64,000 nt of DNA. Source: Hydrolagus colliei (taxonomy: Eukaryota). The stretch spans positions 806,001-870,000 of the forward strand of contig JAYJKW010000106.1 in the NCBI GenBank assembly GCA_035084275.1, read 5' to 3'. Each line of letters begins with the position of its first letter. Within the stretch, counting starts at the first letter, position 1. Under the pieces are notes generated by a model, which saw only the letters and a list, made by a program, of their open reading frames with translations, had not been told where the DNA came from and did no database searches. This document shows, piece by piece, positions 100-47,800 of the stretch. Position numbers and translations under genes: made by a program.

Positions 100-1110
100 C
101 GAGGAGGATTTAGTGTTCCACAGTGTCAATGGCAGAGCATGTATTTCAAGATCCTGGTCCTCACTTTCAACGCCCTTTCAAACAACAACAACAACAACGT
201 AATTATAGTTATGGAGCCGTTGAATTTCCTTCAATTTCCACCAAACTAACACCAATAAGACGGAGGCCCACCTGATCGGCTCCGCGCCTCAGTCACTGTC
301 AACAGCAACATTCCAGGCTGCTCTTTCCACCTCTCGATGCCAGTCAGGAATCTGGGCTTCATTTTTAATCCTGAACTGACCTTCCTCCCTTATATCCGCG
401 CCATGACCGGTACAGCCTTTCACTGCATCCGTAACATTGCCAGACTCCGCCACTGCCTCACCCCCCCATTGCTGCTGAAACACTCATAGACGCCTTCGTT
501 ACATCTAGGCTCGAGTACGGGATGTCTCTGCTCATCGGCCTTCTTTGCTCCTCACTTCACAGGCTGCAGATCATTCAGAATTCTGCAGCTCATGTTCTCT
601 CCCGCACTGGGCTCCGCAGACACATCCCACAGAGTATCCCACAATTGCCCATCACCACTGGCTCCCCATCCCACAGAGCATCGAACTCAAGATACTCGTC
701 CTCACCTTCAAGGCCATTCACGGCCTTGCCCACGACTATCTCTACGACCTGTTGTCTCTCTATTAGCCTGCCCGTCCCCTCCAATCAGCAGGTTTTGTCC
801 TGCTCCACGTCCACTGCCCTAGCCACCGTACGATCTGTGGCCGTGATTTCAGCCCGTCTGCTCCCACAGTATCGAACACCATCCCGCAATTCCTTCGACT
901 CTCTTTCATTCTTCAAGGCAGGTCTAAAGAACCTCCTATTCGACCGTGTCTTCTGCTGCCCTCCTAACACTTCCCCATCTCCTCCTCTCATTCTCCTTCC
1001 CCCTACCCCGACCCTTCCCCACCTGCTCGGGTTTCGACCTGATTGTTTAGCGCGTCAAGACGTCCGCCCATCGTGAAATACGCTCGAAAATGTAATTTTA
1101 TTGTTGTTCA
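100..1110 (+). mobile_element. L2-clade LINE 3' fragment, degenerate
   Basis: Frameshifted RT C-terminal motifs (LHRLQIIQNSAAHVLSRT, HWLPIPQSIELKILVLTFKAIHGLA) and an L2-type 3' end with a TTG tail near 1100. Homologous to 27915-28590, 39680-40375 and 46200-47080. Confidence 0.85.
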
Positions 1111-6944: not shown

Positions 6945-9458
6945 ATGGCAAATCTGATCATTTGGAGAATTGAAGACATTTACTACCCGATTCTCGCTGC
7001 TGTTGGAATTCCTGGCAAGTGATTTATCCACTTGATTATTTTAGGTGAGTTTGCACTAAAGTCTGTAACCTGACTCAGTTCAGCAATCTCACCTTTCAAT
7101 GAGCAAACGGTAGTTTATCTAATCCTTGAATTTCCCTGTTTGTCCCTTGAAATCTCCCTGCCCCTTTTCGTGATACTGACCGTTGACGATCAAATAAATT
7201 GTGAGGGCTTGAGTTCTTAACTAAGTGCGGTAGCGAGAATAAAAGCGTAGTAACAAATCTCCAGTTTCCTGCTTAAGTATTAGAGATTGTAGTGCGCCAT
7301 TCAAAAGAGAAAATAGATAAGGTGAACTTGATGGCATTTTGATTATGTAATTCTTTTTTGTTACTCCATACAATAATTATTTCACCATTTAGTAACTGTA
7401 TAGTGGTGGTTCGCTATTGTGAACATCTGACTACCGAATTTCCACACAACATCAAGTCGACTCGCTTTACAGTATATTCTGTGAAGAGATTTCAGACGAT
7501 AAGCAGACGATAAGATATTATATCTAACACAAGTTTCCAGACTAATCTCTATTATTCGCCGTTTACCGGCTGAATCGGGGAGGTGTGAGCTTTGGTTCCA
7601 TGAACGAACATTCGACTCCATCAAAAAACAAACAATCACCATTTGTGAAGCGCCTTTCACATGGGAGAGCGTCTGAACACTTACACACAGTGCTGGGTTG
7701 CAAAGAGGATGAATCTCTGTATGACGAATATTTATGTTCAAATTAAAGAATGCTGTGAATGTGGCTAATGGTAGAGAGATTGACTGATCCTCTGTGCAAA
7801 CCCAGCATTGTATGTCAGCACACAGTGAGGGGAGTGACCGGTGTTATCTCAGAAAGTTTGGGGCAGGACACGGCGAGGTATTTGCTCCATGTTAAGATGT
7901 CTTAAACAATAGACAATTTGCTGTATCAAACGCTAGGCATATGTGTTTATTAATTTTGCGTTTCTAAATGACCATTAAATGACCTCTCTCGGTTTATCTC
8001 AGTTTGAACGTATCTCTATTAATATGCCTACTTCTGTAAGTGAACGACGCATATTCTAAATGTGGCTGTATCTCTGCCAGCACCTCTCCCTTTCTCTCTG
8101 TTGGTATGTGTTTGTGTCTATTGTGATGTGTGTTTCTTTCTGAACATGAACGACAGTCTCTGTCTGTTACATTCGTTATCTGTGTTCTTGTCTTTCCCTT
8201 ACTGTGGCGTTTCTTCCGCATTTCGCTCTGTGTATGTTTGTGTTTGTTTATCTCTCCGACTATAGTGTATCCATCTCGCTCATTCTCTTTGTCTGTTTCT
8301 CTACACCACTCTCTCTCCAACGACCGCTCTCGCTCTCTCTCTCTTCCCCGCTCTCTCACTGTCGCTCAGTATATCTATCAATTTCTCCCCCCTCCCCCCC
8401 ACTCCCACCGTCCCACTACCCATTTTCTTTGTCACTTTTCGGTGGGCAGCCGGGTGGTGGACATCGAGACACGTTCAGCAAATTGTAATCTTTACCAATG
8501 AATATTTATGTCTGATCATTTCTTTCTCTTTATCTCTGTAGTCAACCTATTGGCGATTGTTGTCCTGGCTCGAGGGAGGTGCGGTCTCTCCAAGTGCATC
8601 TCCATGTATCTGTTGGCCATGTCAGTGGCTGATCTGACGGTGGTTACTTCCACGGTGATCTTTGCTGTCATTGTACCTATGTACTTCAGGAATCCGTTCG
8701 TGTTCATCACTCCCGTGTGCCGGGTGCTAATTATACTGGAATTTGCAACAAGGGAAACCTCTGTCTGGTTCACTATCGCTTTCACCTTTGATCGATATGT
8801 CGCCATCTGTTGGCAAAAACGAAAAGATAAATATTGCTCCGAAAAAACAGCTGCTGCCGTGATAGCGGGGCTGAGTGTTGTCTTCACTGTGAAAAACATT
8901 CCCTGGTATTTTGCATATGAATCCGAATTCACAATTGACAAGAAACCCTGGGGATGCATTCCTACACCAAACTTTTACACTTCACTCCCATGGATAGTGT
9001 TTGACTGGCTCGGCATCACTGTCACCCCTTTTCTCCCGTATGTTCTGATTTTGCTGCTCAACGCCCTGACTGTCAGCCACATACTGGTGGCCAGTCGAGC
9101 TCGCAGGAGATTGCGGGGACACAGTGATGGGGACAGAACTAGAGGTGAGAGAGACAGTGATCCAGAGATGAAAAACAGGAGGAAATCCATCGTTTTACTG
9201 TTTGCTGTTTCTGCCAATTTTATATTATTATGGATAGCATATATTCTGTTATCATTATACTGGAAGATTACACGCGACTATGTGTACTCGGGGTATAATG
9301 ATCCTAAGTATATTATCTATCGAACTGGCTTCATGTTGCAGATGTTGAGCTGCTGTACAAACACATTTATTTACGCTGTGACTCAGACTAAATTCAGAGA
9401 GGAGATTAAGAAAGTGCTGGCATTTCCTGTTACACTAATTGTGAGATTATTTCATTGA
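6945..9458 (+). CDS. GPR139/GPR142-like class A GPCR, gene 1 (2 exons, 328 aa)
   Basis: Exon 1 6945-7014 (MANLIIWRIEDIYYPILAAVGIP+G) with donor GCAAGT. Acceptor tctgtAG ends at 8541; exon 2 8542-9458 is in frame (VNLLAIVVL...). Seven TM segments, FDRY, NTFIY; resembles GPR139 (YY...GLP|ANIL, LEFSS..SIW.T...DRY.A.C). Confidence 0.92.
7688..7810. mobile_element. internally deleted MITE in the intron of GPCR gene 1
   Basis: Terminal inverted repeats cagtgctgggttgcaaagaggat / atcctctgtgcaaacccagcattg, with TA on the right flank. The longer copy is at 21464-21903. Confidence 0.55.
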
Positions 9459-19817: not shown

Positions 19818-22613
19818 TCAATCAAATAATCTCACAATTAGAGCGACAGGAAATGCCAGCCCTTTCTTAGTCTCCTCTCTGAATTTAGTCTGAGTCACAG
19901 CGTAAATAAATGTGTTTGTACAGCAGCTCAAGAACTGCAACATGAAGCCAGTTCGCCAGATAATATATTTAGGATCATTAGACCCCGAGAACCAAAGGTC
20001 GTTTGTAATCTTCCAGTATAGGAAATTTAGAGTAAATGTCATCCATAATAATATAAAATTGGCAGAAACAGCAAACAGTAAAACGATGGATTTCCTCCTG
20101 TTTTTCATCTCTGGATCACTGTCTCTCTCACCTCTAGTTCTGTCCCCATCACTGTGTCCCCGCAATCTCCTGCGGGCTCGACTGACCACCAGTATGTGTC
20201 TGACAGTCAGGGCGTTGAGCAGCAAAATCAGAACATACGGGAGAAAAGGGGTTACAGTGACGCTGAGCCAGTCAAACACTGTCCATGGGAGTGAAATGTA
20301 ATAGTTTGGTATATGAATGCATCCCCAGGGTGTCTTGTCAATTGTGATTTCGGATTCAAATGCAAAATACCAGGGAATGTTTTTCAAAGTGAAGACAACA
20401 CTCAGCCCCGCTATCACTGCAGATGCTGTTTTTTCGGTGCAATATTTATCTTTGAGTTTTTGGCAACAGATGGCGACATATCGATCAAAGGTGAAAGCGA
20501 TAGTGAGCCAGACAGAGCATTCCCTTGTTGAAAATTCCAGTATACTTAGCACCCGGCACACGGGAGTGATGAGCACGAACGGATTCCTGAAGTACACAGG
20601 AACAATGTACGAAAAAATCACCGTGACAATAACCACCGTCAGATCAGCCACTGACATGGCCAACAGATACATGGAGATGCACTTGGAGAGACCGCACCTC
20701 CCTCGAGCCAGTACAACAATCGCCAATAGGTTGACTACAGAGACAAAGAGAAAGAAAAGATCAGACATAAATATTCATTGGTAAAGATTACAATTTGCTG
20801 AACGTGTCTCGATGTCCACCACCCGGCTGCCCACCGAAAAGTGCCAACGAAAGTGGGTAGTGGGACGGTGGGAGTGGGGGGGAGAGGGGAGAAAGTGATA
20901 GATATACTGAGCGTCAGTGAGAGAGCGGGGAAGAGAGAGAGAGAGAGAGAGAGTGGTCGTTGGAGAGAGAGTTGGGTAGAGAAACAGACAAAGAGAATGA
21001 GCGAGTTGGATACACTAAAGTGGGATAGATAAACATACACAAGCATACACACCGGGACATGCGGAAGAATCGCCACAGGAGGCGAAAGACACAAGAACAC
21101 AGATAATGAAAGTCACAGACAGAGACTGTCGCTCATGTTCAGAGAGAAACACACATAACAGTAGATGCAAAGACACACCGACAGACAGAAAGGGAGATGT
21201 GCTGGCAGATTCAGAAAATGAGTCGTTCAGTTCAAAAGTAGGCATACTAATACAGATACTCACAAACTGAGATACACCGAGATACATAAACGTCATTGAG
21301 AAACGGAAAATAATTAAATAAATAAATAATTAAATAATCTAGCGTTTGATACAGCAAATTGTCTATTTTTCAAGACATCTCAAAATGCAGCAAGTATCTC
21401 GCCGTGTCCTGCACAAACTTTCTGAGATAACACCGGTCACCCACCTCACTGTGTGCTTACGTACAATGCTGTGTTTGCACAGAGGATCAATCAATCGTTC
21501 CTCTACCAATTGCCGCATTCAATGAATTATTTAGTTTGAACAAAATAAGTCATCAGAGGCAATCGAATACATACATTTGACTCAACTGACCCCACTGCTG
21601 CATTTAAATACAATGCAGTGTTTGCATTAAACCTGTCTCATCCTTTGAGAGATTTGGACGACCACAGTTGGCGTTGTATCAAAAGCACGAATCGTTGCAA
21701 TTGAGTCAATGATCTTCAACCAATATCGGTCTGTCTGTACAACGTGCCAATGTAAAATGCCTTTGCAAACAGTACCTTTGGTTAGAGGAGTCAATTGGAT
21801 ATATTCGATTGTATCTGATAATATTTATTTGTTGAAATTAAAGAATTATTTGAATGCGGCAAATGGGAGAGGGTAGATTGATACTGTTTGCTACCCAGCA
21901 TCGTATGGAAATACACAAACGCTCCCCTGTTTCAAAGGTGATTGTTTATTTGTTGATGCAGTTTCAATTGCGAATATGGAACCAAAGCTCACAACTCCCT
22001 GATTCAGCCGGTAAACTGCGACCAATAGAGATTAGTCTGGAAACCTGCATTTGATATAACATCGTATAATATCTTTATGTCTCCTCGAATCGCTTCACGG
22101 AATATACTGTAAAGCGAATCGACTTCATTAGGTGTGGAAATTCGGGAGTCAGATGTTCACAACAGCCAACGACCACTATAAGGTAACTAAATGGCTAAAT
22201 GTTTTTTATATTGCATCGTTTAAAAATTTGCATAATCAAAATTCCATCGGCTTCACATGATCTATTTTCTCCTTTGAATGACTCCCTGCAATCTCTAATA
22301 CCTAAGCAGGCAAACTGGAGATTTGTTACTAAGGTTTTATTCTTGCTACCGCACGTAGTTAAGAACTCACGTCCTCACAATTTGTTTGATCATCAGTGGT
22401 CATTATCCTGAAATAGGAAACAGGGAATTTCACGGATTACACAAAGCACAATTTGCCAATTGAAAGGTGAGATTGCTAAACTGAGTCAGGCTACAAACTT
22501 TACTGTAGACTAACCTAAATACTGAATTCGATAAATCACTTGCCAGGAATTCCAACAGCAACGAGAATCGGGAAGTAAATGTCTTCAATTCTCCACATTA
22601 TCGGATAGGCCAT
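19818..22613 (-). CDS. GPR139/GPR142-like class A GPCR, gene 2 (2 exons, 328 aa)
   Basis: Exon 1 22613-22544 (MAYPIMWRIEDIYFPILVAVGIP+G) with donor GCAAGT. Exon 2 20734-19818 follows ctgtAG. 44 of 305 exon-2 residues differ from gene 1 (manual count). Confidence 0.92.
21464..21903. mobile_element. TA-flanked MITE (Tc1/mariner-type ends), ~440 bp
   Basis: TA|caatgctgtgtttgcacagaggatcaatc ... gattgatactgtttgctacccagcatcg|TA; imperfect TIRs of about 85 bp. Confidence 0.6.
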
Positions 22614-26139: not shown

Positions 26140-27056
26140 TCATAGAATCATAGAATTTTACGGCACAAAAGGAGGCCATTCGGCCCATCTAGTCTGTGCC
26201 GGCTCTTTGAAAAGAGCGATTCAATCCCACTGTCCTGCCCGCTCCCCATAGCCTAATAGACCAGTTCTCCCTAAATAAAGATCTAATTCCCTTTTAAAAG
26301 TTGTTATCGAATCAGCCTCCACCACCTTTTCAGGCAATGCATTCCAGAATCGAACAACTCGCTGAGTGAAAAAAATTCTCCTCAGCTCCCCTCTACTGCG
26401 CCTTGAAACTATTTTAAATCTGTGACCACGAGTCACAGATTCACCCACGAGTGGAAATAGTTTTTCTCTATTTGCCCTGTCGAAACCCCTCATGATCTTA
26501 TAAACCTCTATTAGGTCTCCCCTCAATCTTCTCTGCTCCAGAGAGAATAACACTAGCCTATCTAGCCTCTCCTCATAGCTGAAGTCCCTCAATCCTGGCA
26601 CCATCCTAGTAAATCTTCGTTGTACCCTTTCCAAAGCCTTCACATCCTTTCTGTAGTGTGGTGACCAGAATTGAACACAGTATTCCAGCTGAGGCCTCAC
26701 CAAAGTCCTATAGAGGTTAGTCAGCACTTCCTGACTTTTGTACTCTATACCCCTATTTATAAAGCCTAGTATCCCATATGCCTTCTTAACAGCCTTGTCC
26801 ACCTGTCCTGCCACCTTCAACGAGTCACTAACACAAATCCCCAGGTCGCTCTGTTCCTTTACACCATTTAAAATTGTACTATCTAGCCTACATTGCCTCC
26901 CTTCATTTCTTCTCCCAAAATGCATCACCTCACACTTCTCTGCATTAAACTTCATCTGCCATGTGTCTGCCCACTTTACCAATTTGTCTATATCCTCTTG
27001 CAGATGGCTACTATCCTCCTCACTGTTTACTATTCTCCCTAACTTAGTGTCATCTG
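26140..27056 (-). mobile_element. young 5'-truncated CR1 LINE
   Basis: Uninterrupted 253-aa RT C-terminal ORF at 26221-26982 (WQMKFNAEKCEVMHFG...RPQLEYCVQFWSP), truncated at the DDTK motif. The 3' tail is (TTCTATGA)n at ~26140-26156. Confidence 0.95.
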
Positions 27057-27248
27057 AACTTAGTGTTGTCAGAAATTTACGCTGGAATATCTGATTTGTA
27101 CACTCTCATCTACATTTAATGACGGTAGCGTTTGGATCAAATCAACTCAAATATTCATTGATATTCATTGATATCCTGAAGGTCGCTACATGATTAATAG
27201 CCGCTGATGCCACGTTATCGATCTCATTCTACTTCAGTTATCCTCTAT

Positions 27249-28709: not shown

Positions 28710-30360
28710 GAAACACACAGTCACTACACTGTGACCCTCAAACACAGTCACTAAACTGTGACCCTCACACACAGTGACTACACTGTGACCCTCCAACACA
28801 GTGAGAGAGGAGAAGATGAGAGAGAGATCTGTTTATAGCCTATGATAAACATAGAGAGAGAGAGAGAGAATGAGAGAGAGAATGAAGGTGAGTTAGCGAG
28901 AGAGAGAGAGAGTCCTGTCTCTAGCCTGAGATACACTCACACAGAGAGAGAGGGAGAGAGAGAGAGTGAGAGACCTCTGCAGCCTGAGGTGCCCTCACTG
29001 AGAGAGAGAAGGTGGGAGAGAGAGATGTTATTACAGCCTGGGATTCACAGAGAGAGAGAGAGACCTCTAGAGTCTGAGATACAAACAGGGAGAGAGGAGA
29101 TGTGTGTGTGTGTGTGAGATGCGGATATTTGTATAGCCTGAGATATACTGAGAGAGAGAGAGACCTCGTTGTAGCTGAAATGCACTCACACAGAGAGAGG
29201 GAGAAGATGAGCGAGAGAGTGAGCGAGATCTCTACAGCCTGAGATACAGAGAGAGAGAGAGAGAGAGAAGGTGTGAGAGATAAATATACATATCCCTACA
29301 CCTGGAGGTACAGAGAGAGAGAGATATGTCGACAGCCTGAGATACACTCACACAGAGAGAGGGAGGAGGTGAGAAAGAGAGAGAGAGAGTGGGGTGTCAG
29401 GGGGGGGCATATGCGAGAGGGATATATAGAGACCTGTTTACTGCCTATGATCCACTCACACAGAGAGAGAGAGAGAGCGCGAGAAGGTGAGAGACAGAGA
29501 GAAGGGAAGAGAGTGTTAGAGAGAGAGAGCTCTCTGCAGCCTGAGATACACACACACACACAGATAGAGAGAAGGGGGGCGGGGGTGTGAGAGAGAGGTA
29601 CACTAACAGAATGACACAGAGACAGTGTGAGAGAGAGAGAGAGAGTCTGAGACACACACACACATAGAGAGAGAGGGATAGATACACATATACAGAGTGG
29701 GGGGGAGACACGTGCAGAGAGAGGGGGGGCGATAAACATACTCATCAAGAGAGAGGGGGAGACACACACATACAGAGAGAGGAGAGACACCCATACTTAC
29801 AGAGAGGGAGAGAGAGACATACAGAGAGAGAGACATACAGAGAGAGGGGAGACACCCATACATACAGAGAGGGAGAGAGAGACATACAGAGAGAGACATA
29901 CAGAGAGAGGGGGGGACAACTATACTCATACAGTGAGATGGGGGTGGTGGGGAGACATACACACATTTGGAGCGAGAGACACACACATACAGAGAGAGGG
30001 AGAGAAGCACACTCATACAGAGCGGGAGGTTGTGGGGGACACACTCACAGACATAGAGAGGGGTGGGGGAAACACACACACACACACACATGCAGAGAGA
30101 GGGAGGCTAGAAACATAAGCACAGAGGCAGACACATACACTCAGCCCCCGCCTCTCACCCAGACACACAGCCACACCCCACACATACAGGCCCCTCACAC
30201 AGCCACCCACACCCCCCACATACAGCTCCCCCTCCCCACACACATACACTCAGCCCCCACACACATAAACCCCCCTCATGCAGACATATACCCCACCCTC
30301 CCCACGCACATAGTACCCCCTCAAACAGCCACGACCCCCACCCCCCCCCCCCACCCCATA
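28710..30360. repeat. compound minisatellite / low-complexity block
   Basis: 26-bp unit x3 (acacagtcactacactgtgaccctca), then GA-rich units with a cagcctgagatacac core, acatacagagagag units, and a CA/C-rich tract. Confidence 0.9.
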
Positions 30361-30727
30361 ATGTGTATGTTGGTGCAGTCCTGTATCTCAGTGTTTGGAG
30401 CAATCGCCTTACAAGCCAGAGACATGGGTTCAATTCCAGACAGGGAGCAGCAGCTCGGGCAGGTTTCCATCTCCACACGTCTAATAACAACCCCACATAC
30501 AACACATAATGACATAATACTGACATCATTATTAGATAAGAAATAATAATTAATTCATTAATTAATTGGGAAACAACAAGAAATACGAAACAATTGAAAA
30601 TAATTTAAAAATTGATTAGAAAAATTAATTGGAAAAAATCTAAATTGGAAAAAAGCCAAATACCAAACAATTTAAGTTTAAAAAAAACAATCTAGTGACA
30701 GCCAGTGGGCGGGTCTCTCTCTCTCTC

Positions 30728-31046
30728 CTGTCAATCACTGATTACCAGGGAAACGGGGGGCGTCTCTCTCTCCCTTTCCTGTGAATGACTGGTTACCAGG
30801 GAAACGGGGGGCGTCTCTCTCTGTTCTGTCAATCACCGATTACCACGGAAACGGGGTACGTCTCTCGCTCCCTTTCCTGTCAATGACTGGTTACCTGGGA
30901 AACGGAGGGCGTCTCTCTCCTGTCAATCACAGGTTACCATGGTAACGGGCGGGGCGTCTCTCGCTCCCTTTCCTGTCATTGATTGGTTACCTGGGAAACT
31001 GGGGGCGTCTCTCTCTCTCCTGTCAATCACTGGTTACCACGGAGAC
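30728..31046 (+). promoter_or_regulatory. tandem promoter array: 7 x [CTGTCAATCA-like + 3 bp + X-box + GC box]
   Basis: Units start at about 30728, 30779, 30826, 30877, 30920, 30973 and 31020. A perfect palindromic X-box GTTACCATGGTAAC is at 30933. The array is followed by GCGTCA, the E-box GTCACGTG and a donor GTGAGT at 31099 (putative end of a non-coding exon 1). Confidence 0.7.
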
Positions 31047-31290
31047 AGTGCTGCGCGCAGGCATTCCGCGTCATCAACTTCGGTCAGCAGGTCACGTGGT
31101 GAGTGTCCCTGCTGGCGGCGGCAGAGACACAGAGAGAGCTGCCTGTGTACAGCCTGAGATACAGACGGTCAGGGGGAGAGAGAGAGAGAGGGTGAGGCTG
31201 TGTGTGTGTAGGAGGGCCTGGTGTGAGGGTGAGTGTGTGTGTCTCTGTGTGTGTGTCCCTGACCCCCCCCCCCTTGTCTCCCTGTAGGTG

Positions 31291-31803
31291 NNNNNNNNNN
31301 NNNNNNNNNNNNNNNNNNNNNNNNNNNNNNNNNNNNNNNNNNNNNNNNNNNNNNNNNNNNNNNNNNNNNNNNNNNNNNNNNNNNNNNNNNNNNNNNNNNN
31401 NNNNNNNNNNNNNNNNNNNNNNNNNNNNNNNNNNNNNNNNNNNNNNNNNNNNNNNNNNNNNNNNNNNNNNNNNNNNNNNNNNNNNNNNNNNNNNNNNNNN
31501 NNNNNNNNNNTGTATGTGTNNNNNNNNNNNNNNNNNNNNNNNNNNNNNNNNNNNNNNNNNNNNNNNNNNNNNNNNNNNNNNNNNNNNNNNNNNNNNNNNN
31601 NNNNNNNNNNNNNNNNNNNNNNNNNNNNNNNNNNNNNNNNNNNNNNNNNNNNNNNNNNNNNNNNNNNNNNNNNNNNNNNNNNNNNNNNNNNNNNNNNNNN
31701 NNNNNNNNNNNNNNNNNNNNNNNNNNNNNNNNNNNNNNNNNNNNNNNNNNNNNNNNNNNNNNNNNNNNNNNNNNNNNNNNNNNNNNNNNNNNNNNNNNNN
31801 NNN
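31291..31803. other. assembly gaps (N runs) inside a GT-rich tandem repeat
   Basis: Two N runs separated by 9 called bases. Confidence 1.
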
Positions 31804-32094
31804 GGATGAGTGTGTCTGCGTGTGTCCCTCACACCCCTTTTGTCCCCCTGTAGGAGAGACTGGTGTGAGGGTGAGTGTGGCTGTGTGAGAGTGTGTGTGT
31901 GTGTGTGGCTATGTGTGTGTCCCTGACCCTCCTCGCCTGCCTGTAGGGGGTCCTGATGTGTGGGTCAGTGTGGCTGCTGTCTATGTGTGTGTGTGTGTGA
32001 ATCATTGTCTCCCTGTAGGGGCTGCATTTGACCATATGTTTGGCTGGTAACACATCAGGTGTAAGTTTGTGCTGCTGACACAAGGCAGCAGAGA

Positions 32095-35000
32095 ATGTCT
32101 GAGGAAACCCAAGCCAGCAACATGGAGTTTGTCATTACCCCAGGGAAAGGTAACCACTCAATGTATCTGTACCTTTGTTTGAGAAAAAGAGAATTAAGGT
32201 TATAATATTTAGGAAATGTACAGCACAAAAGGCGTTAAAACAGAAAGCTCAATGGTGGACGTGCAGAAAAGCATGTGAGACTAACAAAACTCGGAAAACA
32301 AGATAAAGTCACACCCACAATTAACACCTGCTTAGTCCATCTGTGTCAGCAGTCTCGAACCCAGAGCATTGACTAACAAAGGGGGTCAATGTACCGATAA
32401 GAGATGTGTGAAGTGAATGTGATTGAAAGGAGGTAAATCCTCCCACATGAAATGTAAAGGATAAACACAGATGTAACCTAAGTGACGGGGTCGTTAACTT
32501 GGTGAAGCTTCGACCCTATCCCTGTACCAGACTGAGCGACTGGTTCAGAGATAGATAATAAATGTACTTGGAGTAACTAAACGTTTTGAGGTATATTTAT
32601 TGTATATGTGTATGAATGAGTTTTAGGAGAAGGACCAATAAACAAAATATACCTAGCAACCTTACTGTGTTTACTTATTGTTTAAATGTTCATTCTAGCT
32701 TTATTGATAACTTGCCCATGCATTACTTGCATTTCGCCTACAATTATACAGTCAATTGACTTTATAGTATATTGTGCAAAGCGCTTCGACATGTCGATAT
32801 GGTGTGAAAAGCGTTATATCAAAAGCAAGTATATTATTATTTGATATTTCACTTTTCAGGTCTTCTAGATGTCTCAAAACGCTTCACAGAATATACTGTA
32901 AAGAAAATTTACTGTATATTTGTGGAGAAAACTCAGCAGCAAATCATGCCTAGCAGTGTCCCACAAACAGCAGTGCAATGAAATAATCAATTTTTTTTTT
33001 TAGCAAACACTGGAAGCAAATATTCGAAGGAAGTAAGTAAACCTTTGCATGTGGCAGGACAGCTAGATAAGGCTGTTAAAAAAGCATACGGAATACTAGG
33101 CTTTATAAGTTGTGGCATTGAGTACAAAGGTTAGGAAACTTTAATTATCCTGTAGAAAACATGGTTTAAGCTTCAGCTAGAGTGCTGTGTTTCGATTCTG
33201 GGCACCATACTTTAGGAAGGACTTTACGGACTTGGAAAGGGTGCAGAGGAAATCCACCGCGATGTTAGCAGGATTGAGGGACTTTAGTTATGAGAAAAGT
33301 CTAGAAAGTCTAGGATTATTCTCATTGGAGCAGAGTAGGTTATGAGTAGACCTGATAGAGGATTTTTTCATTCAGCGAGTTGTTCGAATCTGGAAAGAAT
33401 TGCCTGAAAGGGTATTGGGGGCCGAATTGATAACAACACGAGGTGGGTAGTTATTTAGGGAGGACAGGTTTTGCGGGGTTATTGGGAGAAATCCGGGGAG
33501 TCGGATTGACATTGAATTGTTATTTTCAAAGAGCCAGCACAAGACTCAATGTGTCAATATGCCTCACTTCAGCTGTAAAATTCTACGATACTATACTTCT
33601 GTTATTGTAAGGCATAAGGAGTGAGGAAACTGACAGAAATTTAACCAGGTTTCTCGTTTATAATACGAGTGCTCTAACAGCAGAGCCACAGGATTTATTG
33701 GATATTGACTTAAGGAATTAATTGTACTGAACTGCATTTTTGTGCTTAATTTGTTTCTCATAATAATATTTTATAATAGTGATATTCCTTGCATTTGTTA
33801 TAGCGCTTTTCAAATAATCTGGATGATTTACACTACTTTGCAGAATATACCGAACAATGAATTGATGGTATATTTTACTGTCGAATCATGGCAGCCAACA
33901 ACAACAACCAGTTTTTTTTTTGAAGTATTTTTGGTTTAGGAAATCTATCAACCGGGTTCATATTTACTGCTATGCAAACAGAGGCTTGTGGTGTGAGGAA
34001 ATTGGCTAAGGATTTTTCACTCCTGGGAATCAAGCCCGGATTCTCTTGTGCAAGGCACTGTCCAAGTTGATTAGGAGCAACTTTATTTACTTTCCACAAA
34101 CTCTAACATCTCTCAGCCAAAAGCTGTTAGTGCTTTGTAGTCTCTGTGTACATCCTGTTTTACAATTCTGCTCTTTTTTTATATAAATGTACTCTATAGA
34201 GCCCAGAATTGCAAATAGCTTGAGCTGCAAACGGAATCAATTGACGGGAGGAGAGGCTGGGAGCAACAGATACAATTTGAAAAAGAGGGAGACAAGAAAT
34301 AACACTGAGGACAAGGATCTTCGTGACGAAGATAACCTATGTAAGTGATAAATCAATCAGAGTTTCTAAGTATAAAATGGTCCAGTACAGCAACTATGCC
34401 TTAGCATTGATGACGAGCTTTTAAGGTGAAGTTCCTCTGGTGTTTCAGGTAAGAATGCAACTGTTGGAACGAGAAGCAACTTATATAGAGTCCTCAAGAC
34501 ATCCTGGAGCACTTTGAAGGATTATATTGTGAATTGTTGCAGATTCCACAGCGATGACCCCACAAACAGCCATGAGGTGACAGACTAAATTTATCTTGGA
34601 TATTGAAAGCCGGGACACTGCGGTGAAACCGAGAAAGATAAACTTGCCCACCAACCCCCCCCTTTGGAATCATTCCATCATAATGCTAATGTTTACCTGA
34701 ACAAAATGGCTGGGGAACTGGGCTAAAAATTTCATCAGAAGTGCGGCAGCTCAGAAAATGGAACACATTCCCCACATTAATGTTAGTTTGTACCAGTGAC
34801 CTGGCCAGGTATCCTCTTCACTAATTATTCACTCACCTCATGGCTGATTGTGAGAAGTTGCTGGTTGCAAAATACTGACACTGACAAAACCTGACCTGCA
34901 TGAAGGGGGCGCTTTATAAATGCAATGCCACACTGACCCACATTTGACAGTGGGTAGAGCAAAGCATTGACTTGGGCAGGTTTTGTATAAATGCAAGAAT

Positions 35001-35900
35001 AGATTGATCGCACACCAATTGCCAAACAATGCACTCGCATGTATGTCACTTATACAAATATTTCCTGGTTTCCATCAGCAGCAGAAAAGGGCATCTCTCA
35101 GACAGGATCTCCACAGGATCGCCAGCCATCGATCTCAGGAGAGAGACTTTATGATTGTTCCCAATGTGGGAAGAGCTGCACACATTCAGCAATCCTGCAC
35201 CAGCGATCACATATAGGGGAGAAACAATATAAATGTGCTGAATGTGGTAAGCGATTCATGAGTTCAAAAAATCTCAAGGTTCACTATCAAACACACACAG
35301 GAGAGAGACCGTACAAATGTGCTGAATGTGGAAAGAGTTTCAAAACATCAGGTGCCATAAAAGTACACTATCGATCACACACAGGAGAGAGACCATACAA
35401 ATGTGCTGAATGTGGAAAGAGTTTCCAAACAGCTGGGCATATGAAAATACACCATCGATCACATACAGGAGAGAGGCCATACGAATGTGCTGAATGTGGA
35501 AAGAGTTTCACAATATCATCCCATCTCCAGGTTCACTATCGATCACATACAGGAGAGAGGCCGTATAAATGTGCTGAATGTGGAAAGAGTTTCAAGACAT
35601 CACGCGGCATAAAAGTACACTATCGAACACACACAGGAGAGAGACCATACAAATGTGCTGAATGTGGAAAGAGTTTCAAAACATCAGGCGTGCTCCAGCA
35701 ACACCATCGGACACACGAGGGAGAGACCATATAAATGTGCTGAATGTGGAAAGAGTTTCAAAACATCAGGAGAGTTGAAAAAACACCAGCGATCACACAC
35801 GGGAGAGAGACCATATAAATGTGCTGAATGTGGAGTGAGATTCACAAGGAAACAGCACCTCCAAAGTCACCAGGAAACGCACACACGAGACACGGTATAA
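32095..35900 (+). CDS. C2H2 zinc-finger gene, PRDM9-derived-like (SSXRD-like exon + finger array, no PR/SET); frameshift in the array
   Basis: Predicted coding exons 32095-32149 ([18 protein letters not shown]), 34200-34340 (...[24 protein letters not shown]) and 35079 onward. All junctions are GT-AG, phase 1 and in frame. Eight canonical and two degenerate fingers; a 2-nt slip near 35716 gives a stop at 35734. Confidence 0.75.
32176..32658 (+). mobile_element. probable solo LTR (483 bp) in the zinc-finger gene intron
   Basis: TG...CA termini flanked by a perfect 5-bp direct repeat ACCTT (32171-32175, 32659-32663). AATAAA near 32557 and 32637. Confidence 0.55.
33040..33600 (+). mobile_element. 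CR1 LINE 3' fragment, degenerate
   Basis: Colinear with the CR1 at 26140-27056 (gataaggctgttaaaaaagcatacggaatactaggc...ctgtaaaattctacgatactat). Confidence 0.85.
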
Positions 35901-36399
35901 ATGTGCGGATAGTGGGAAGCCTTTTGCAGGGGCTGGTCAGCAGAAAAATCACAAACGCTCGGAGACGCCGTTACTACTTTAGAGCTTTCCATTTCAAACC
36001 ACATCAGATGCTGCTTTGAGAAGTGATTATGATAATAGTTTGATGGATATGATACAGTGATCCACTTGATCTAATACCATTGACTCGCAATCTATTGTCG
36101 TGAAAAATCTTCCTGACGTTAAATGCGCCAACCAAATGTATTTGTGTGGTTTTTGTAATATTACCATAACTAATATTAAAGCCATTGACATGCAATACAT
36201 TGCCATATTCATTAGGTTCCTCATGTAAGGAATATGATGATAAAGCCTTTATCCCCAAATAGAGATGAATCTGAAGTGAATGTATAGAGGGATATACAGC
36301 AGGACAGATACATTATTTCGCAAACAATATGCTTAGAGATAGGCCAAGGCAGTTGGACAAGAGATTGACTCTGGTGTAATGAACGGAGGGAGCTTGATG

Positions 36400-36910
36400 A
36401 CCGATTTGACTGGCGAGAGCTGGAATCCGTAATTGAGAGATGTCTGCAGGCCGCAAAAGCAATATTCTTGTGCTTCCCATCCAAAAGCATGAGAACATTG
36501 ACAAACACACTTTTTACATCAGGTTTCAAATTACTAAATACTGCCAGCTGAATTCAGGAGCTGGGTGAAGGAAACGAGTTGCTGGCTTTGGGAAATGGTC
36601 ACAAGAAGAATAGTCGAAGAATTGATGTGCTTTGAAAGAGGGCAGAAACGCACACTGTGAATCGACTAAAATGAAAACATTTGTCAGATGGGGTTGGGGT
36701 ACATGAGGAAAGCTGTTGTTTCCTCCTTCAACTCCCAACCCCAGACCCTCCACTTTGACGTCCCCATTGGTCACTCCAAATCCCTCCATCTCCCTCCAAC
36801 CCCGCTGTCCCCAGCTCGAGTCTGAATCAATGACTGTCCATTGCCATTTGACGTCCTCCTGACGTGAAAGACGCTATCCAAGTGTATTCTTGTTGTTCTT
36901 GTTGTTGTTT
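36400..36910 (+). mobile_element. unclassified interspersed repeat ending in an L2-type tail
   Basis: About 370 bp is homologous to 41630-42015 (opposite strand). Ends gacgtcctcctgacgtgaaagacgctat...(TTG)n. Confidence 0.6.
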
Positions 36911-38249
36911 CCAGGGTGTAGGGAAGGACCTGGACTGGAGGACGCTGAGGGAGAAATTATAATCTGTCTAGTAATCTGTCACTACGGAAACAGGGAGTTT
37001 TCTGTGAAGAATGTGCATGATATGTTGATATGATATGCTGGTGTCTGACCATAGACTGAGCTGATGAAGCAGGTCATAGTTAATGGCTTCACTGACCTCC
37101 CTAATGGGACAGTATTTTGATGCTGAAAGCTAAAATCCAATTAATCATCACATTTAGTTGTTTAAAATGATGTAGTATGAAATTCCACCATAAATATTTC
37201 CATTATTATTCGCTAACCTCCTGTGTGCTCCTGTGTGGAAGTAGAAATGTAGGCTTATGACTGATAGTACAAATATGCAGAGTGACCCCATCATCACCTT
37301 CCACAACATCGTCTTCAACAAGAATTACATCACTCTCCCAGTGCTAGTGATCGAATGAAATCAATTTATCCTCATAACATTTGCTCTTGTGTAGAAAGTA
37401 ATATAATATGTAGATACAGCATAATGTACTGCCATTAACGATGATGTTTGGATTGAAGCATAACCACATTTTTATTGTATTGTGGATACACAGACAGCTC
37501 CAAGAGTCAGTGTGAGGCCAAGGTGGGAGGAACGAAGGGAGCCAGTATGAGGACAAGGTGGGAGGGGCGGAGGGAGGGAGGGAGGGAGGGGAAGGGGTTG
37601 CAGGATGAGTTTACAGAACATCAACAATTTGAACAAACAACATAAAACAATGGTGGTTGCAGTAGTGAGGATTAACAAGGGTATTTCGTCATCGTTGGCC
37701 ATGAACTCCCTCAACAACCACATCTTCGAGTGGTTCCCCTGCGGATAGTGCGAAGACTTTTGCATGGGCTGGTCACCAGCTAGTCACTGGTTACTGGACT
37801 ATTGTTGGTCGTTATTGTTTTTGTTATTTATTTCTGTTTATAGTTCTTGTTTGATACCCCCACACCCCACCCCCTGCTCCTTGTCCTCCCCCACGATTCC
37901 ATTTCTCCCCCTTTCTCTCCCCCCTTTACCCCTCCCATCCCTCTTCTCCTTTCTCCCCATTCTCCCTGATTTTAAGCCCTCACCACCTTTCCCCTTAACC
38001 ACCTTTTCCCCCTTTTCCCTTCCTGATTTTACCTCACCCTCGCCTCCCTCTACCCCATTATCCTCTTTTTCGCCTTTCTCGCCTGGCCCCACATCCACCA
38101 CTGTCTATGTGGCAGGTATCATGATAACGATGCTGCAAAGCAATGCTTACCAAAGAACAACAACATTATATTTCTATAGTGCAATTTACACCAGGAGAAC
38201 ATCCATTCCTGTGGAAAGTGAGGGAATAATTCAGCTACTTTGAATGGAA

Positions 38250-38950
38250 TTGGAATAGACATATCAGAAAGTCATCCGTTTTGATTTAAAACGGAAAAGT
38301 CCAGTAGCATATGCAGATAGGACAGATTAACTATCAGAACATCATCATTATTGTTATCACAACATCAGCATTTCCTTGGAGAACGTAGGCCAATGTCCAC
38401 TTAATTGACCTTCATCAACTTCGAACTCGCAAGATATGTGATGTTCCAAATTATGCACTCCAAATATCTCGAGATACCGTCTTTTATTTAGCAGAAATGT
38501 ACGTAAGCTTTTCTTGCAACAAACTATGCTATGTCTTTCCACAGTCTTTGTAAGCAGTTTATTCCACAATAATACTACACACTGCATTTAGTAGTGTATG
38601 AATGTTTCAATAAAATGCAGCATTCTCAAATTAATGTTGACTTTTTCCATGTTCTAACCTTCCGTGTTGACCCAACTCTTTTATGAAATTTTGGTTTTCC
38701 TCCACATTTTGTTGTATCTAGCTAGTTCCTTACGAAAGTATCTTTGTGATCTTGATGTCAACTTTGCCACGCTGGTATTGACAGTCTCACTTTAATTTGG
38801 AGGATACGAAGCAGCATGCACATGAAATTTGTGTCCCACATTTAAGATGGAAGTTGATTCTATTGAATGATCCCATGATATACCTCTTAAAGTCTGTCAC
38901 GCATTTCCTTGAGAAGTACTGTTCATGAACTCAGTCGGCTAAGCTAGCTA
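38250..38950 (-). mobile_element. old RTE-clade LINE remnant
   Basis: Degenerate minus-strand translation (VERHSIVCCKKSLR...EGQLSGHW) resembles the RTE RT C-terminus. Confidence 0.4.
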
Positions 38951-39284
38951 CCCACCTGTGATCTCGCTAGAAGTTCCCCTTTGCCACCATTTACCCTCTC
39001 AGGGCTCAACCACCCAACTCGACTGTCCAATGGCCAGTTTGTGAGTCTCCTCATTGGAAGAGCAGAGGAGGGGGTCTGCCTCCTTGTCAAGCCATTGCTG
39101 ATGTCTGGAAGATGTGATCAGGCGCTGTGTGAAATCCAAGGATTGTTATTCCAGTATTGTTATTATCATCATTACAATAGTTTCAAGGCTCTGGACAGAG
39201 CAGTATGTGTGGGTAAACAGGGCGATGACAGAGAGAACCATTGTATTGTTTCAAGCGCTCTGAGACTTTACCCCACATCGAGTT

Positions 39285-42015: not shown

Positions 42016-44818
42016 CAAGCGTATCTTTAGAACCCCCCTTCTGACATAGGGTAAAGCTCACTCTGCTCTGTACCACTCGGTCACTCTGTTGTCCAAATTC
42101 ATTGGCCTATATCTAAGTGTATTGTTTGAGGAATAATATATCTGTCCTGCTATATACCCCTCTATACAGTCGCCTCAGGTTATTCTCTTTAATATTAGTC
42201 ATGGTAACATTACAACAACCATAAAATTACATTTGTTTGGCGGATTTCACGTCGGATAATGTCCAATACAGTAAACATCGACAGTACCTTTCCAGTAAGA
42301 TTAAAAGCGTCATAAATACCCAGATTAATATACCTTTCAATTCTTCAACTACTCTCCCTCCACCCTTACCACGCAAATCATTATCCCTCTGCACGCTTCT
42401 CAACACAATTTAATATCCCTGATCCACACTCAACAAAACCCTTTCCCCTGAAATACATATTAATATCCCTACAACCTGTAACCCACCTCTGCCCACATAC
42501 ACATATGCTCCCCTCCAGCAACACTAACCACCATCCCACACCGACAAAAATAGTCCGACTCCGCTGTTAAAAACAAAAAATGTTGATTGATATTAAGCTG
42601 GTAAACTGTGATCTGGTTGGTAAGAAGCCAGTATGCACATCCCAGTCTGCTCGCAATCAACTGGGAGAGGTGCCTTTTGACCTACTGTTTATAGTGAAGT
42701 GATATATGCTACGGTAATGGAATCACACCTAGTGTCAGTGGGACACACTTTCTCTCACATCTCACTGGTGTCCGCATGTGGTTATTTATGTTTCATTCTG
42801 GGTGCAAGTCTGTGTGTGACTGTGCGTGTATGTGCGCTTTTTTGTTCACGTGTGTCTTTGCGTGAGTTTGTGTCAGTGGCTATCCAATTACTCACAAGGC
42901 GCGAGGCAGAAAACCTGCCATATCAAAATTGAGCATTGCTGGTAGGAATATACTTACATTTCACGTAGACTCGACTTCAACCAGCAATGTGTTGCATACC
43001 AAGGGAATGAAAAGTGACATCGTAGCGCTTTGTAAATTAGTTGAAGATAATTTAGTTTCTTGTTAGATGAGTGAGTAAGTAAAGTGAGTAAGGTTTCTGC
43101 ACCTAAGGACATCCTCTCGACGTGACAGGCGCTTTACAATTTAATTTTGTTATTTGTTGTGGTGAATAACAATAGAATGGAGATAGTATACATACCAGCT
43201 GAATATCACAAGTGTTTCCGCAGAGTAAACTTACAGTTATAATATGCCTGATAATTGAACAGAGCTCTGGAAGCCGCTTTCAATCACTGGCAATTAGCAA
43301 TCTCAAGTAAACACTTAACTTTCTTACTTTTTAATTTGCGAGAATACCAAGAAAAGATCGACGTGTTGTTCTTTATTTGCAAACTGAACCCGGGAATTAC
43401 CCTACGTCAACACATAAGTTAGTCGTCTATTTGTCCCTCTACACTAAACTACACTTCTCTCACTCTTTCTTGCTTGTTACCTTTCCAACCTTCTAAAGAA
43501 CATATGACTTTGGCCATTAATTTACTCATTCCAAAAATAAGTTTCTAGGTAAACAAATCTGTGAATTCACCGTTTATTCCGCCTTTGGGCTTGACATTAT
43601 TTTGAGCTTGATGACAACTATCGTTACTAAAAAATAGAACTGAGTATGGTTCAATGATTTTGTCTTCTCTTAGTTTGAAACAATTGCGCATGTATTTCTA
43701 AGGAGCAGAAACGAGTCTGATTACCAATTCTGATTACGTAGTTTTCTGGGGAACACAACATCTTTCAGCACAAATGAATGTTCTGGCTAATTCTCTCCAT
43801 GTTGACTCAATTGTTGGTATTTTGTAACCCTTGGGTTCGAATGGCAAGGACTCGAAAAAAAACCAATGTAGTTTAGTAAAATATATTGATTAGAATGATA
43901 ATATGTGTATAGCAAACAGTTGATCAATTTATTTCGTACAAGATCAGAAACAGAAAACAGACAATAAAAAATTAAAATATAGCGTAAGATTAATCCCACT
44001 CTAACAGTAGCATAGCAAAATAATACTCGGTTTACACAGCACAGGGAAACAGAGATTCTTTCTGCGTTAGTCAGAGCAAAGTGCTCGTTCAACCTGTCCC
44101 TGTGGTTCCCTAAGCGTTTCTCGAAGCGATTCTAGAGGTCTACGTATCCGAGTATGTCACCTATATTGGTATGAATCTTGTTCTGTCTATTCTGGTGGTT
44201 GTTTTGAAACCAAGTAGAGCATGTAGCTTCAGTGCTATCTGTCTTTGCAGTTACCAGTAGTTGTAAGGGTGATGTGAAAAGTACATGTCTCTTTCCGAGA
44301 AGAGAACCCAATGGTCGTCTGTGTCTCTGTGGTCCAAGATTCGGTTTTGACCACGTTTAAATGATGATTTGTGTTACCGCAAAATTCTGTTCTCTCTCTT
44401 TGGTTTTGTAACTCTGGATTAACACTTCATGTTCCAAAACATCACCTCAACAAATGTCGAAGATTATCCACGTCTGCCACGATGCTATGCACGGACGCAT
44501 TCCAAGGCCGGTTCATTTCTCTGAGGTTTGGTTTCCAAAGCGTAACCAAACTCCACAAGCTGTCTGAGCTGCGATTCGCAAGTCCCCGAAAAATACGTCC
44601 TCACACTTTCACTCCCTCCAAAAGGTACAGTCAACTCCTTTTTCGCAGCCTTTGTGAAATATTTTGATTTTTACGATGAACATGTCAATGTGTAACGTTA
44701 TCTGAAAGCAATATTCTTATTCAATGGTTTTAAACAAAAGCCAACATCTAGTTTGTCTTGGTAAGCAGTGCATCGTTGTCCGTGTTCTACTAGTTATTCC
44801 CAGAGATACATGTGTTCC

Positions 44819-47800
44819 TTAGTTAACCAATTTCAGGATCAGTCTGAATGGATATTTCACCAGATGTTTCACTTCCGCTCTGAAGTTGGATTGTGTGACT
44901 GCATAAATGACGGTATTTGTGCAGCAACTTGAAAGCTTAAGCATGGCTGCCACTTCCACGAACACAATGAATGTGTTTTCATTGTCGAAAATATTCGCTG
45001 AAATTCGGTAAAGTATGAATTCGATAACGTACATCAGCCACAACATTATGAAGCTTCCCGATATGGTGAAGAGCAAAACGATGGATTTCTTACGATTTTG
45101 CATTTCTGCGTCATTGCAATTGTTACTTTTCTGGCTCAGTAGGTTTCTGCGGATTCTGATGGCCGCTAAAATGTGTCCAACGGTCACCACGTTCATCAGC
45201 AAAATCAGAAAGAATGGAGCGAATGGGGTTGTTATTATGTCAAACCATTGAAACACAATCCATCCCAGAGAGGTGTAGAAAGCTGGTTTGTTACCGCAAT
45301 ATGCAGGCCCGTTGTCCCATATAACCCAAGGCTCAAATTTGAAGTACCAGGGAACGCTGATGAAACAGCTCAGGGCAGAGATCACTCCTATAACCACGGC
45401 TGCTGTTCTCGCAGTGCAATAAATTGTTTTCAATTTCGGACAACATATAGCTACTAGGCGGTCAAAGGTGAAAGCCACTGTGAACCAGACTGAAAGGTGT
45501 GTCACGGCTGACATCAACACAAATCTGAGTGCACACACGGGAATGGTGTCCAGAAATATGATACTGCAACAAGCAAAATAGATCTGGTTGAATATCACAT
45601 CGCTGATGGTGACCAGAAGATCACCCAATGCCATGGACACCAGGTAGCGTGTGGTACATTTAGAGAGACCACACCTTCCACGGGACAGGACCACAATGGC
45701 CAAAATGTTCGCTGGAAGACAATGAAGAACAAGCACACAAATGGACTATTGAGTTGCGTAAGTTAGATTATAATAAAAATAAATAAACTTTGCGTTTGAT
45801 GTAACGCTTTTCACATCTACGAGAGGTCTCAGAGGAATTCACGGAATGTACAGTTGAGTTAGTTGGCTACATATATGTGAACGAAAATATTGTGGTTGTT
45901 TTTGGACAGATTCATATTAGGCGTGGGGAGCAAATTTGCTCTGGGTTTTGCACTTGACCTGCCAGGATTCGAACACAGGTCTCACGAATGTCTGTCTCGT
46001 GCTCCCATCACTGAGATACATCACTCCATATAGTTAATGGCATTTTTGCTCAAACAGCAGTTTCTGTTGGGAAGGTGAGTCTGGCAATTTTCATAGATCA
46101 GGCTTCTGAGTCACTGGATTCAAGCGGACACATGCCAGGAGATCGACGCACACACTAAGCTGATGTAAGTTGCAGCGCTGCAGATACAATCAACTTAAAG
46201 CAAGGCAATTCAGAGTGAGATGATCAGGAGCTGGATGAGCGCAAATTTCTGGATGCTAAATGATGACAAGACAGAGGCCATACTCTTTAGCTCTGGACAA
46301 CGTTTTCATTCGTATAGTTCTCACATTCTCCACCTTCCTGGTCTGCACCTAAAACACTCCGAAATTGCCATGCAAACTTGGGGTCAGGTTCGACCCCCAA
46401 CTCTCCTTCCTCCTCCACATCTGGTCCCTCACCATCACCGCTTTCTGCCACCTCCGACGGATCGCCCGCCTCCTGAAATACCTCACCTCAAAAGCCGCTG
46501 AAAACTTAATCCATGGCTTTGTCACCTCTCGGCTGCAATATTACAACTCCCTTCTCGCCGGTCTCCCCGCCATCACAAACCACAAAATCCAGCTCATTCA
46601 AAACTGCCGCCCGCATACTCGCCCGTACCAAACTTCTCTCCCCCATCACCCCAGTCTTGCAGACTTCACGGGCTCACCATCCGAAGAGGATAGACTTCAA
46701 GATCCTCACACTTGTTTTCACGTTCCTCCACTCCTCTGCACCCCCTGCCTCTCTGATCTCCTCTCCCCCAAAACCAGCACGCGCTGCCTTCGCTCCGCCA
46801 GATCTGGCGTCCTCTATTTCCCAAAATCGTCCGCTCCACCCTCGGCGGCCATGTCTTCAGCCACTACGACCCGAGGCTCTGGAATTTCCTTCTTCACTCC
46901 CTTCGCATTGCAACTCTCTTCTCAGGTTTACGTCACAGTTTAAGATCTTTTTCTTCGACCGCTCCTTTGTTCTCCTTTCTGCCCCTGCCCCTGGCTCGGT
47001 CCTGGGATCCCCTACTGTGAAGCGCTCTGAGACGCCGCCTGGCGTGGAGGGCGCTATATAAGTCGAAGTTGTTGTTGTTCATTACGGAGTTCGGAAGGCG
47101 TGCAGGAGATCATATTGGTAAATTTTGGTTTGTTCAGACATGGCCAGTAATTTGAAGTCTATCTCTGGATATTTAAGATGATGCTGCAATATTCCACAGA
47201 ATTATTGTGAAAAGATTCAAAATACTTTAACCTTGTTCCTTTTCTGAATGCTACCATTTTGATAGAGCGAAACTGCATAACATATATCCAATCGAATTAG
47301 CGGACATAAATGACGAAATAAAGTTTGGGATTTTCATGGCTTGATTTTTAAAAAATGTTGTCAAACAACTCATCTACAACACGGACAATCAGTATTCAAA
47401 TAATCGTGATTATCCAGTGTTTTCTGATTGGAATCCACAGCTCAAAGGCGTTACTGCATTCCTCAAGAAGCTTGAATCTAACTTTTCATGGAACATAGCG
47501 ATTTCAATATCCTCAAACTCAACTTCAAATCATTCCCTGCCCCGGTAGCTGTCTACCCCTCAACCTGCTCACAACTCTGGTCCTTCCAGCCATCCAGCCA
47601 AGTTGACGAGTTGACGCTCGTCAACTTGAGCCTCAACGCATCCACGATACATTCTTTAGAACCGTTTAGAAATCGGACATTAAATTATTGCTTTTTGACA
47701 GTGACCACGGTCGCTCTGATTCATCTACTCATCACTAACATGTTTGACTGCCTGATTCAGAAGTCATATCTCGCCTCTGATTCAAAAGGTTGTGGGCTCG

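Follow-up and report, generated by a model that had tools for sequence, protein, structure and literature searches.

The locus considered here lies in a 64,000-nucleotide stretch of Hydrolagus colliei DNA (contig JAYJKW010000106.1, positions 806,001–870,000, forward strand; henceforth the window). An earlier note, made from the sequence alone, had described an exon resembling the SSXRD region of PRDM9 that is spliced directly to a zinc-finger minisatellite, and had proposed a paralog whose zinc knuckle and PR/SET exons were lost as a phase-symmetric block. The gene is not a canonical PRDM9 and is very probably PRDM9-derived. Cited papers were covered in part, and statements drawn from them refer to the parts covered.

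Gene structure and surroundings

Coordinates are collected in Table 1. The SSXRD-like exon is 141 nt long, with an acceptor ending in CTATAG and a GTAAGT donor, and the exons, phases and open spliced frame described in the earlier note were all recovered. The 55-nt upstream exon does end in phase 1; its likely start codon, by homology to a Callorhinchus milii protein (XP_007910548.1, described below), is the ATG at 32122 and not position 32095. The last nine codons of this exon match residues 1–9 of that protein with a score of 17, reached by 3 of 4873 donor-anchored stretches (itself included), and the C. milii Cys at 32129 is present in contigs from all four DNA-type runs compared. Joining 34340 to 35079 leaves the frame into the finger exon open, as claimed; an alternative join at 35082 is likewise open, and one at 35085 leads to a stop. 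Intron 2 contains only two pyrimidine-tract acceptors, 34448 and 35078, and the finger frame is reached only from the latter. The predicted product has 274–283 amino acids and six fingers. Intron 1 yielded no hidden exon of phase 1/1, the interval 29000–39000 no Rfam match and the window no second copy of the gene.

Table 1 Features of the H. colliei gene and its upstream region (positions in the window)
Feature	Position	Strand	Remarks
Putative promoter: CpG-rich tandem repeat	30713..31046	+	Units: X-box-like RFX site, CCAAT-like word, GC box
TG-rich degenerate repeat	31250..32020	+	Recurring CTGTAG acceptor-like ends; both N gaps inside (31291–31510, 31520–31803)
First coding exon	32095..32149	+	Phase-1 donor; likely start ATG 32122
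Solo-LTR-like insertion, about 483–488 nt, intron 1	32176..32658		TG...CA ends, 5-bp duplication
SSXRD-like exon	34200..34340	+	Phase 1/1; motif 34268–34339
Intron 2, 738 nt	34341..35078	+	No detectable knuckle/SET; second acceptor 34448
Last exon, coding part	35079..35734	+	Linker, degenerate finger 35156–35212, six intact C2H2 fingers 35234–35716, post-frameshift stop
Two out-of-frame fingers	35736..35900	+	Followed by second 2-nt shortfall
Candidate poly(A) signal ATTAAA	36175..36180	+	Sole hexamer in 35730–36600

The acceptor at 34448 abuts a donor-like GTAAGA (34446–34454), which gives the look of a zero-length exon, and other copies carry 6–7 additional bases here. Some contigs of run X10 have six extra bases after this acceptor, reading Tyr-Arg, and the short C. 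milii isoform likewise reads Tyr-Arg after the motif; judged from these sequences, the acceptor looks old. Weak similarity to XP_007910548.1 (E 0.026) extends past the 35078 acceptor, for ~55 nt upstream, which suggests a shift of the acceptor into an old exon. Pieces of the 3′ end recur downstream, namely 35904–35943 at 37740–37779 (90% over 40 nt) and, inverted, 36115–36181 at 42187–42253 (87% over 67 nt).

The upstream tandem repeat has a TRF period of 51/98 and a CpG observed/expected ratio of 0.69. Its motifs, which we take to be X-box, CCAAT and GC box, include nine X-box matches at seven places, compared to 1.8 expected (at least nine in 0 of 100 shuffles), although all nine are copies of one repeat unit. 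Each X-box-like site is paired with a CCAAT-like word, the site at 30933 is a perfect palindrome, and an E-box lies downstream at 31091. The X-box/CCAAT/GC-box arrangement suggests a real promoter; that it might drive germ-cell or ciliated-cell expression is a guess. Similar TG-rich repeat units flank the N gap. The insertion in intron 1, presumably an LTR, lies 26 nt past the exon-1 donor and appears young; it is absent from other copies, in which 32170 is joined to 32659 (4 of 4 runs), and organism A has near-identical high-depth contigs.

Intron 1 also contains CR1-like fragments and a SINE-like element that is very abundant (32730–33000, 33045–33594). A LINE reverse-transcriptase-like open frame of 294 aa is present at 26221–27105, and the window carries LINE/SINE debris. 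The zinc-finger gene sits inside a cluster of four related rhodopsin-family GPCR exons (8502–9458, 19818–20774, 44819–45745 and 59951–60901), presumably GPR139-like. The first of the four was confirmed as 7tm_1 by Pfam, and the first two form a close inverted pair.

A Callorhinchus milii relative and the comparison with PRDM9

A phmmer search of the 46-aa exon peptide against 1.84 billion representatives returned one match at E ≤ 0.001 (4.2e-5), an uncharacterised C. milii protein. Searching with that C. milii region identified XP_007910548.1 (1 match of 2 candidates), an open frame of 419 aa in which an SSXRD-type motif is joined directly to a PRDM9-type proximal finger followed by a seven-finger array. 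No SET or KRAB was detected in it by Pfam; the same SET-less architecture is present in two UniRef entries, and a second, near-identical C. milii entry shares 109 of 116 residues. The H. colliei exon is 62% identical to residues 91–135 (tblastn E 2e-12 against the window), and the coding part of the last exon is 62% identical to residues 202–419, linker included. By finger identity to the H. colliei copy, XP_007910548.1 ranks first of 121 (0.60 vs 0.454 ± 0.033). Neither the intron nor the additional C. milii segments align to the window, in contrast to the exon. By sequence, the H. colliei gene and XP_007910548.1 are thus members of one family. Residues 10–90 (about 80 N-terminal residues) and 137–190 (the proximal finger) have no counterpart in the H. 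colliei copy; its best proximal-finger alignment scores 33 against a null of 28.7 ± 4.0, the C. milii finger itself being degenerate. Other searches were less specific: a word-index search with the SSXRD-like exon gave 0 matches among 1 candidate, the ESM Atlas returned generic C2H2 clusters or nothing usable, and the finger exon retrieved generic long zinc-finger proteins, none of the best 120 being labelled PRDM9 or matching the SSXRD-like exon.

Neither this exon nor the C. milii proteins matched the Pfam SSXRD profile (PF09514), and no PDB match to SSX or the PRDM9 N-terminus was obtained. The profile test is insensitive, since whale-shark PRDM9 scores only E=103 for pfam09514 (PMC5519329 supplement) and the pre-knuckle region of L001, a metagenome-fetched PRDM locus, also lacks a match. 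The human PRDM9 peptide given in the earlier note was located at residues 181–204 of the sequence printed in Table 1 of PMC3836704, which served as the human reference (numbering checked on Y276, Y341 and Y357). The seven ungapped identities claimed for the H. colliei motif (7/24) are correct (P=0.0016), and XP_007910548.1 residues 112–135, aligned by eye without gaps to human 180–203, are identical at 11 of 24 positions (P=2.6e-6); both binomial values use hand-counted compositions and are uncorrected for post-hoc choice. The two AAC codons noted at conserved Tyr positions (34301 and 34334) both correspond to Tyr in C. milii.

Residues 136–168 of XP_007910548.1 align to the human proximal finger (382–411) at 10 of 30 columns, by eye and with one 3-residue gap; the match opens with three identities right past the junction, and some of the ten are generic C2H2 residues. 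Because the segment matching human 180–203 directly adjoins the one matching 382–411, XP_007910548.1 reads as PRDM9 minus residues 204–381 (knuckle plus PR/SET, 178 aa). Descent from PRDM9, as earlier proposed, finds support in this independent protein with its shared junction. End-anchored alignment of the L001 pre-knuckle peptide to the C. milii motif gave scores reached by 20 and 75 of 5000 shuffles, and to the H. colliei exon a score reached by 3838 of 5000, not above chance, so that the link of the H. colliei gene to PRDM9 runs mainly via the C. milii protein. The proposed loss of a phase-symmetric block also agrees with the start of a knuckle exon of a teleost in phase 1 and with two C. 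milii isoforms that part at the same split codon.

Intron 2, other copies and the finger array

Pfam detected no SET, knuckle or KRAB among 96 plus-strand ORFs of 30000–37500 (0 matches) or in three read-through frames of intron 2; a PDB search with one of these frames gave no PRDM match. The profile check for SSXRD, KRAB and SET proposed with the earlier note thus returned zinc fingers only. ORFs, read-through frames and DNA- and frameshift-aware alignments all bear out the reported lack of knuckle and SET in the 738-nt intron, and C. milii shows the same junction without SET. The KRAB exon was likewise not visible in the ORFs, with 504 N bases upstream unread. No Ns occur in 31804–36600, and overlapping contigs of other copies cover intron 2 in four runs; the aligned parts are so similar to an intron without SET signal that they cannot encode an intact SET exon. 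For C. milii, the lack of SET is that of the gene models, the intron itself being unread.

A decayed knuckle/SET remnant in intron 2, hinted at by eye by knuckle-like spacing (34504–34549) and short matches (34627–34723), was rejected as unproven. Alignments with real PRDM exons of three of seven metagenome-fetched loci (L001, L002 and L006) were at background; L003, L005 and L007 (near-copies of L002) and L004 (a chance match) were omitted. At the protein level, scores of 24–25 were reached in 129, 150 and 155 of the 170 remaining bins and in 241, 264 and 278 of 300 shuffled sequences; at the DNA level, 83, 139 and 65 of 170 bins reached the scores obtained. As a control, the three PRDM exons themselves match PF21549 and PF18445. 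L001 (match 399–520, minus strand) is an AT-rich locus with an SSXRD-like peptide, knuckle and SET start in one intronless open frame.

Contigs of 4 of 16 DNA-type runs, three from coded organisms and one unlabelled, were aligned at an 80% threshold. In each of the four, numerous contigs match the exons, intron 2 and the 3′ UTR at 85–95% identity. The Arg codon at 34281 (SSX R169 equivalent) is kept in 24, 12, 32 and 12 contigs, essentially all depth reading G, and Tyr at 34334 in 9, 7, 23 and 7 contigs; the T of this Tyr codon accounts for all depth in two runs and for 41% and 70% in the remaining two. These are figures for the contigs listed, a minority of all rows, and not copy numbers, being inflated by alleles and graph bubbles; no single contig extends across the gene, and none listed across the whole of intron 2. 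An organism C contig spanning 35003–35258 at about 95% indicates that the short last exon is shared among copies. The contigs indicate that gene and intron are multi-copy and that other copies keep the lost Arg and Tyr; this is thus a lineage family rather than a one-off, and the PRDM9 paralog of the earlier note belongs to an old family of many copies.

The finger array of the H. colliei copy begins with a degenerate finger that is 6 nt (two residues) short and continues with six intact fingers, after which a 2-nt shortfall leads, as read from the assembly, to the stop at 35732–35734, within the last exon; finger spacing is 82 nt instead of 84 twice. The claimed minisatellite stands as an 84-nt array, but its homogenisation is only partial (82–87% nucleotide identity outside contact codons). 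Between fingers, contact codons have a nucleotide identity of 0.41 vs 0.82 for the rest, with N:S of 87:12 vs 141:57, and the backbone is conserved (V1–V10, 0.93–0.97). Contact positions hold 0.35–0.38 of the amino-acid diversity on 28 columns (0.275 in C. milii) and 0.39 on 23 columns, a value reached by 4.9–7.5% of 307 control blocks (115 proteins). By a published formula that ours only approximates, most complete PRDM9s lie above 0.41 and most partial ones at 0.16–0.33; at such an intermediate share, a hotspot role is not established.

Equivalents of R169 and Y177 are missing from the H. colliei motif, as is its terminal Tyr, for which reason this copy is probably weakened or dying. The earlier suggestion of decay thus fits the H. 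colliei copy (motif changes, no proximal finger, frameshift) and not the family, and on balance we lean slightly towards decay of this copy. Shortened arrays need not impair function (PMC11703093).

Origin, possible function and known systems

It is highly likely that the gene belongs to a cartilaginous-fish, probably holocephalan, family of SSXRD plus zinc-finger genes that arose from a PRDM9 duplicate, dropped the knuckle and PR/SET, retained no recognisable KRAB and then multiplied. In the proposed course of events, the SSXRD exon of the duplicate would have become spliced to the last exon once the knuckle and PR/SET block was gone, and the SET-less gene would then have multiplied as a birth-and-death family resembling KRAB- and FiNZ-zinc fingers. 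The array is predicted to bind DNA sequence-specifically without writing H3K4me3 or H3K36me3, and the short basic-Tyr-acidic SSXRD motif would be the only candidate effector, so that intact members are most likely chromatin-associated transcriptional regulators, probably repressors. For this functional picture we see even chances; origin, mechanism and state of the H. colliei copy taken together are held somewhat more probable than the reverse. SSXRD carries most of the repression by SSX (PMC8835667). SSX1 uses its basic part to anchor on the acidic patch and its acidic tail to read H2AK119ub, with Y177 packed on H2A, and PRDM7/9-type peptides without SSX W164 and R167 show no nucleosome binding (PMC7714695). 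Equivalents of W164 and R167 are absent from both the H. colliei and the C. milii motifs, which makes a simple transfer of the SSX mechanism doubtful.

The copies could instead all be functionless PRDM9 pseudogene fragments amplified by segmental duplication. The frameshifted array, the short first finger and the altered motif residues of the H. colliei copy would agree with this, as does the classing of salmonid paralogs without SET exons as likely non-functional (PMC11703093), yet in C. milii the frame is open and both the motif and seven fingers are intact, the exon stays 62% identical where intron and extra C. milii segments are unalignable, Arg and Tyr are kept in other copies and finger backbones are conserved, all of which makes this account unlikely. 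We consider it quite unlikely, too, that these genes are catalytically dead meiotic modulators competing or multimerising with full-length PRDM9 at hotspots. PRDM9 does multimerise via its array, for which five fingers suffice (PMC6643046), contact-position diversity is in the top 5–8% of control blocks and the X-box-rich putative promoter is compatible with germ-cell expression; homomers are nevertheless preferred over heteromers (PMC6643046), the contact share of both species is below that of most complete PRDM9s, KRAB is absent, and C. milii PRDM9 was undetected in testis RNA, with an array that is not fast-evolving, in the part of PMC5519329 covered.

An ordinary zinc-finger gene with a charged exon that resembles SSXRD by chance or convergence is very improbable. 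The motif is indeed short and charge-rich, matches no profile and was compared with the human protein by eye, but two PRDM9 segments flank one splice junction in the right order, where the SET block would go, and the first has a composition-corrected P of 2.6e-6. Nor, given the overlapping contigs across an intron free of Ns, is there more than a very slight chance that SET exons of a full PRDM9 were lost to misassembly or skipped in one isoform: N gaps do lie nearby and none of the contigs listed spans all of intron 2, but the sole longer protein found with the motif (1 of 2 candidates) also has no SET. The SET-less family derived from PRDM9 is accordingly preferred.

With PRDM9 (KRAB-SSXRD-PR/SET-ZF) such a family has in common an exon of SSXRD type whose end falls at the same motif in the same phase, and one last exon that bears the 84-nt array with variation concentrated at contact residues; the C. 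milii member adds a degenerate candidate for the proximal finger. It differs from PRDM9 in lacking knuckle, PR/SET and detectable KRAB, in its less homogenised array and in being multi-copy. The C. milii genes, named ZNF814-like (XP_007910548.1/LOC103191364 and LOC103185808), share the first-exon peptide, SSXRD exon, junction residue, linker and finger type with the H. colliei copy, which lacks residues 10–90 and 137–190 and has an eroded motif and a frameshift; their database names miss the PRDM9 origin. Coelacanth aKRAB-ZNFs, KRAB-ZFPs and FiNZ-ZNFs are also finger families that expanded without SET and have a short effector at the N-terminus, their origin being traced to PRDM9 or proposed to lie there (PMC8835667 among the sources), but they keep KRAB (or FiNZ) and have no SSXRD, the reverse of the present family as tested with Pfam KRAB. 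In teleosts, salmonids and cnidarians, truncated PRDM9 paralogs share exon-wise domain loss and birth-and-death evolution, although the truncations covered by surveys retain SET by definition and salmonid copies without SET exons are treated as non-functional (PMC11703093).

PRDM9 surveys would miss SSXRD-finger genes because they require SET (three surveys, including PMC5519329). The family is apparently undescribed: no account of it in cartilaginous fish was found in mostly open literature that also covered, in part, PMC11600626, 10.1101/2023.07.08.548231, 10.64898/2026.09.07.749791 and PMC11603059, while supplements of bioRxiv papers and further salmonid ones could list copies. One supplement file of PMC8892340 held no match, and a term search of the part of PMC10547256 covered gave no mention of shark, PRDM9 or SSXRD. 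The C. milii gene qualifies the published statement that no SSXRD-like region was recovered from elephant-shark gene models (PMC5519329).

Loss of domains from PRDM9 is the proposed origin of KRAB-ZFPs as well as SSX (PMC8835667), and an SSXRD-finger architecture, retained by at least two lineages and multiplied, would be a third combination, invisible to SET-anchored surveys. It would offer a natural system for asking what SSXRD does beside a finger array and a candidate for sequence-specific silencing in vertebrates for which the literature covered describes no KRAB-ZFP expansion. It is doubtful whether holocephalans, perhaps with other cartilaginous fish, independently converted PRDM9 into an enlarged system of zinc-finger repressors with SSXRD as effector in place of KRAB/TRIM28. 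If they did, PRDM9 would have a third offshoot in addition to KRAB-ZFPs and SSX, with transposable elements as possible targets, and the SSXRD that elephant-shark PRDM9 is reported to lack would survive in sister genes without SET.

The SSX family (aKRAB plus SSXRD) is likewise a SET-less PRDM9 derivative with a basic-Tyr-acidic motif, but has KRAB, no fingers and a mammal-only distribution (PMC8835667), whereas the present family has fingers and no KRAB, in addition to the missing W164/R167 equivalents (PMC7714695). Residues 1–20 of XP_007910548.1 show, by eye, Pro and Phe at positions 7 and 9 of aKRAB-B (PMC8835667), as might an eroded KRAB remnant, a resemblance given no weight as evidence here. 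C. milii isoform X2 is finger-less and stops three residues past the motif, an SSX-like short product of the same gene.
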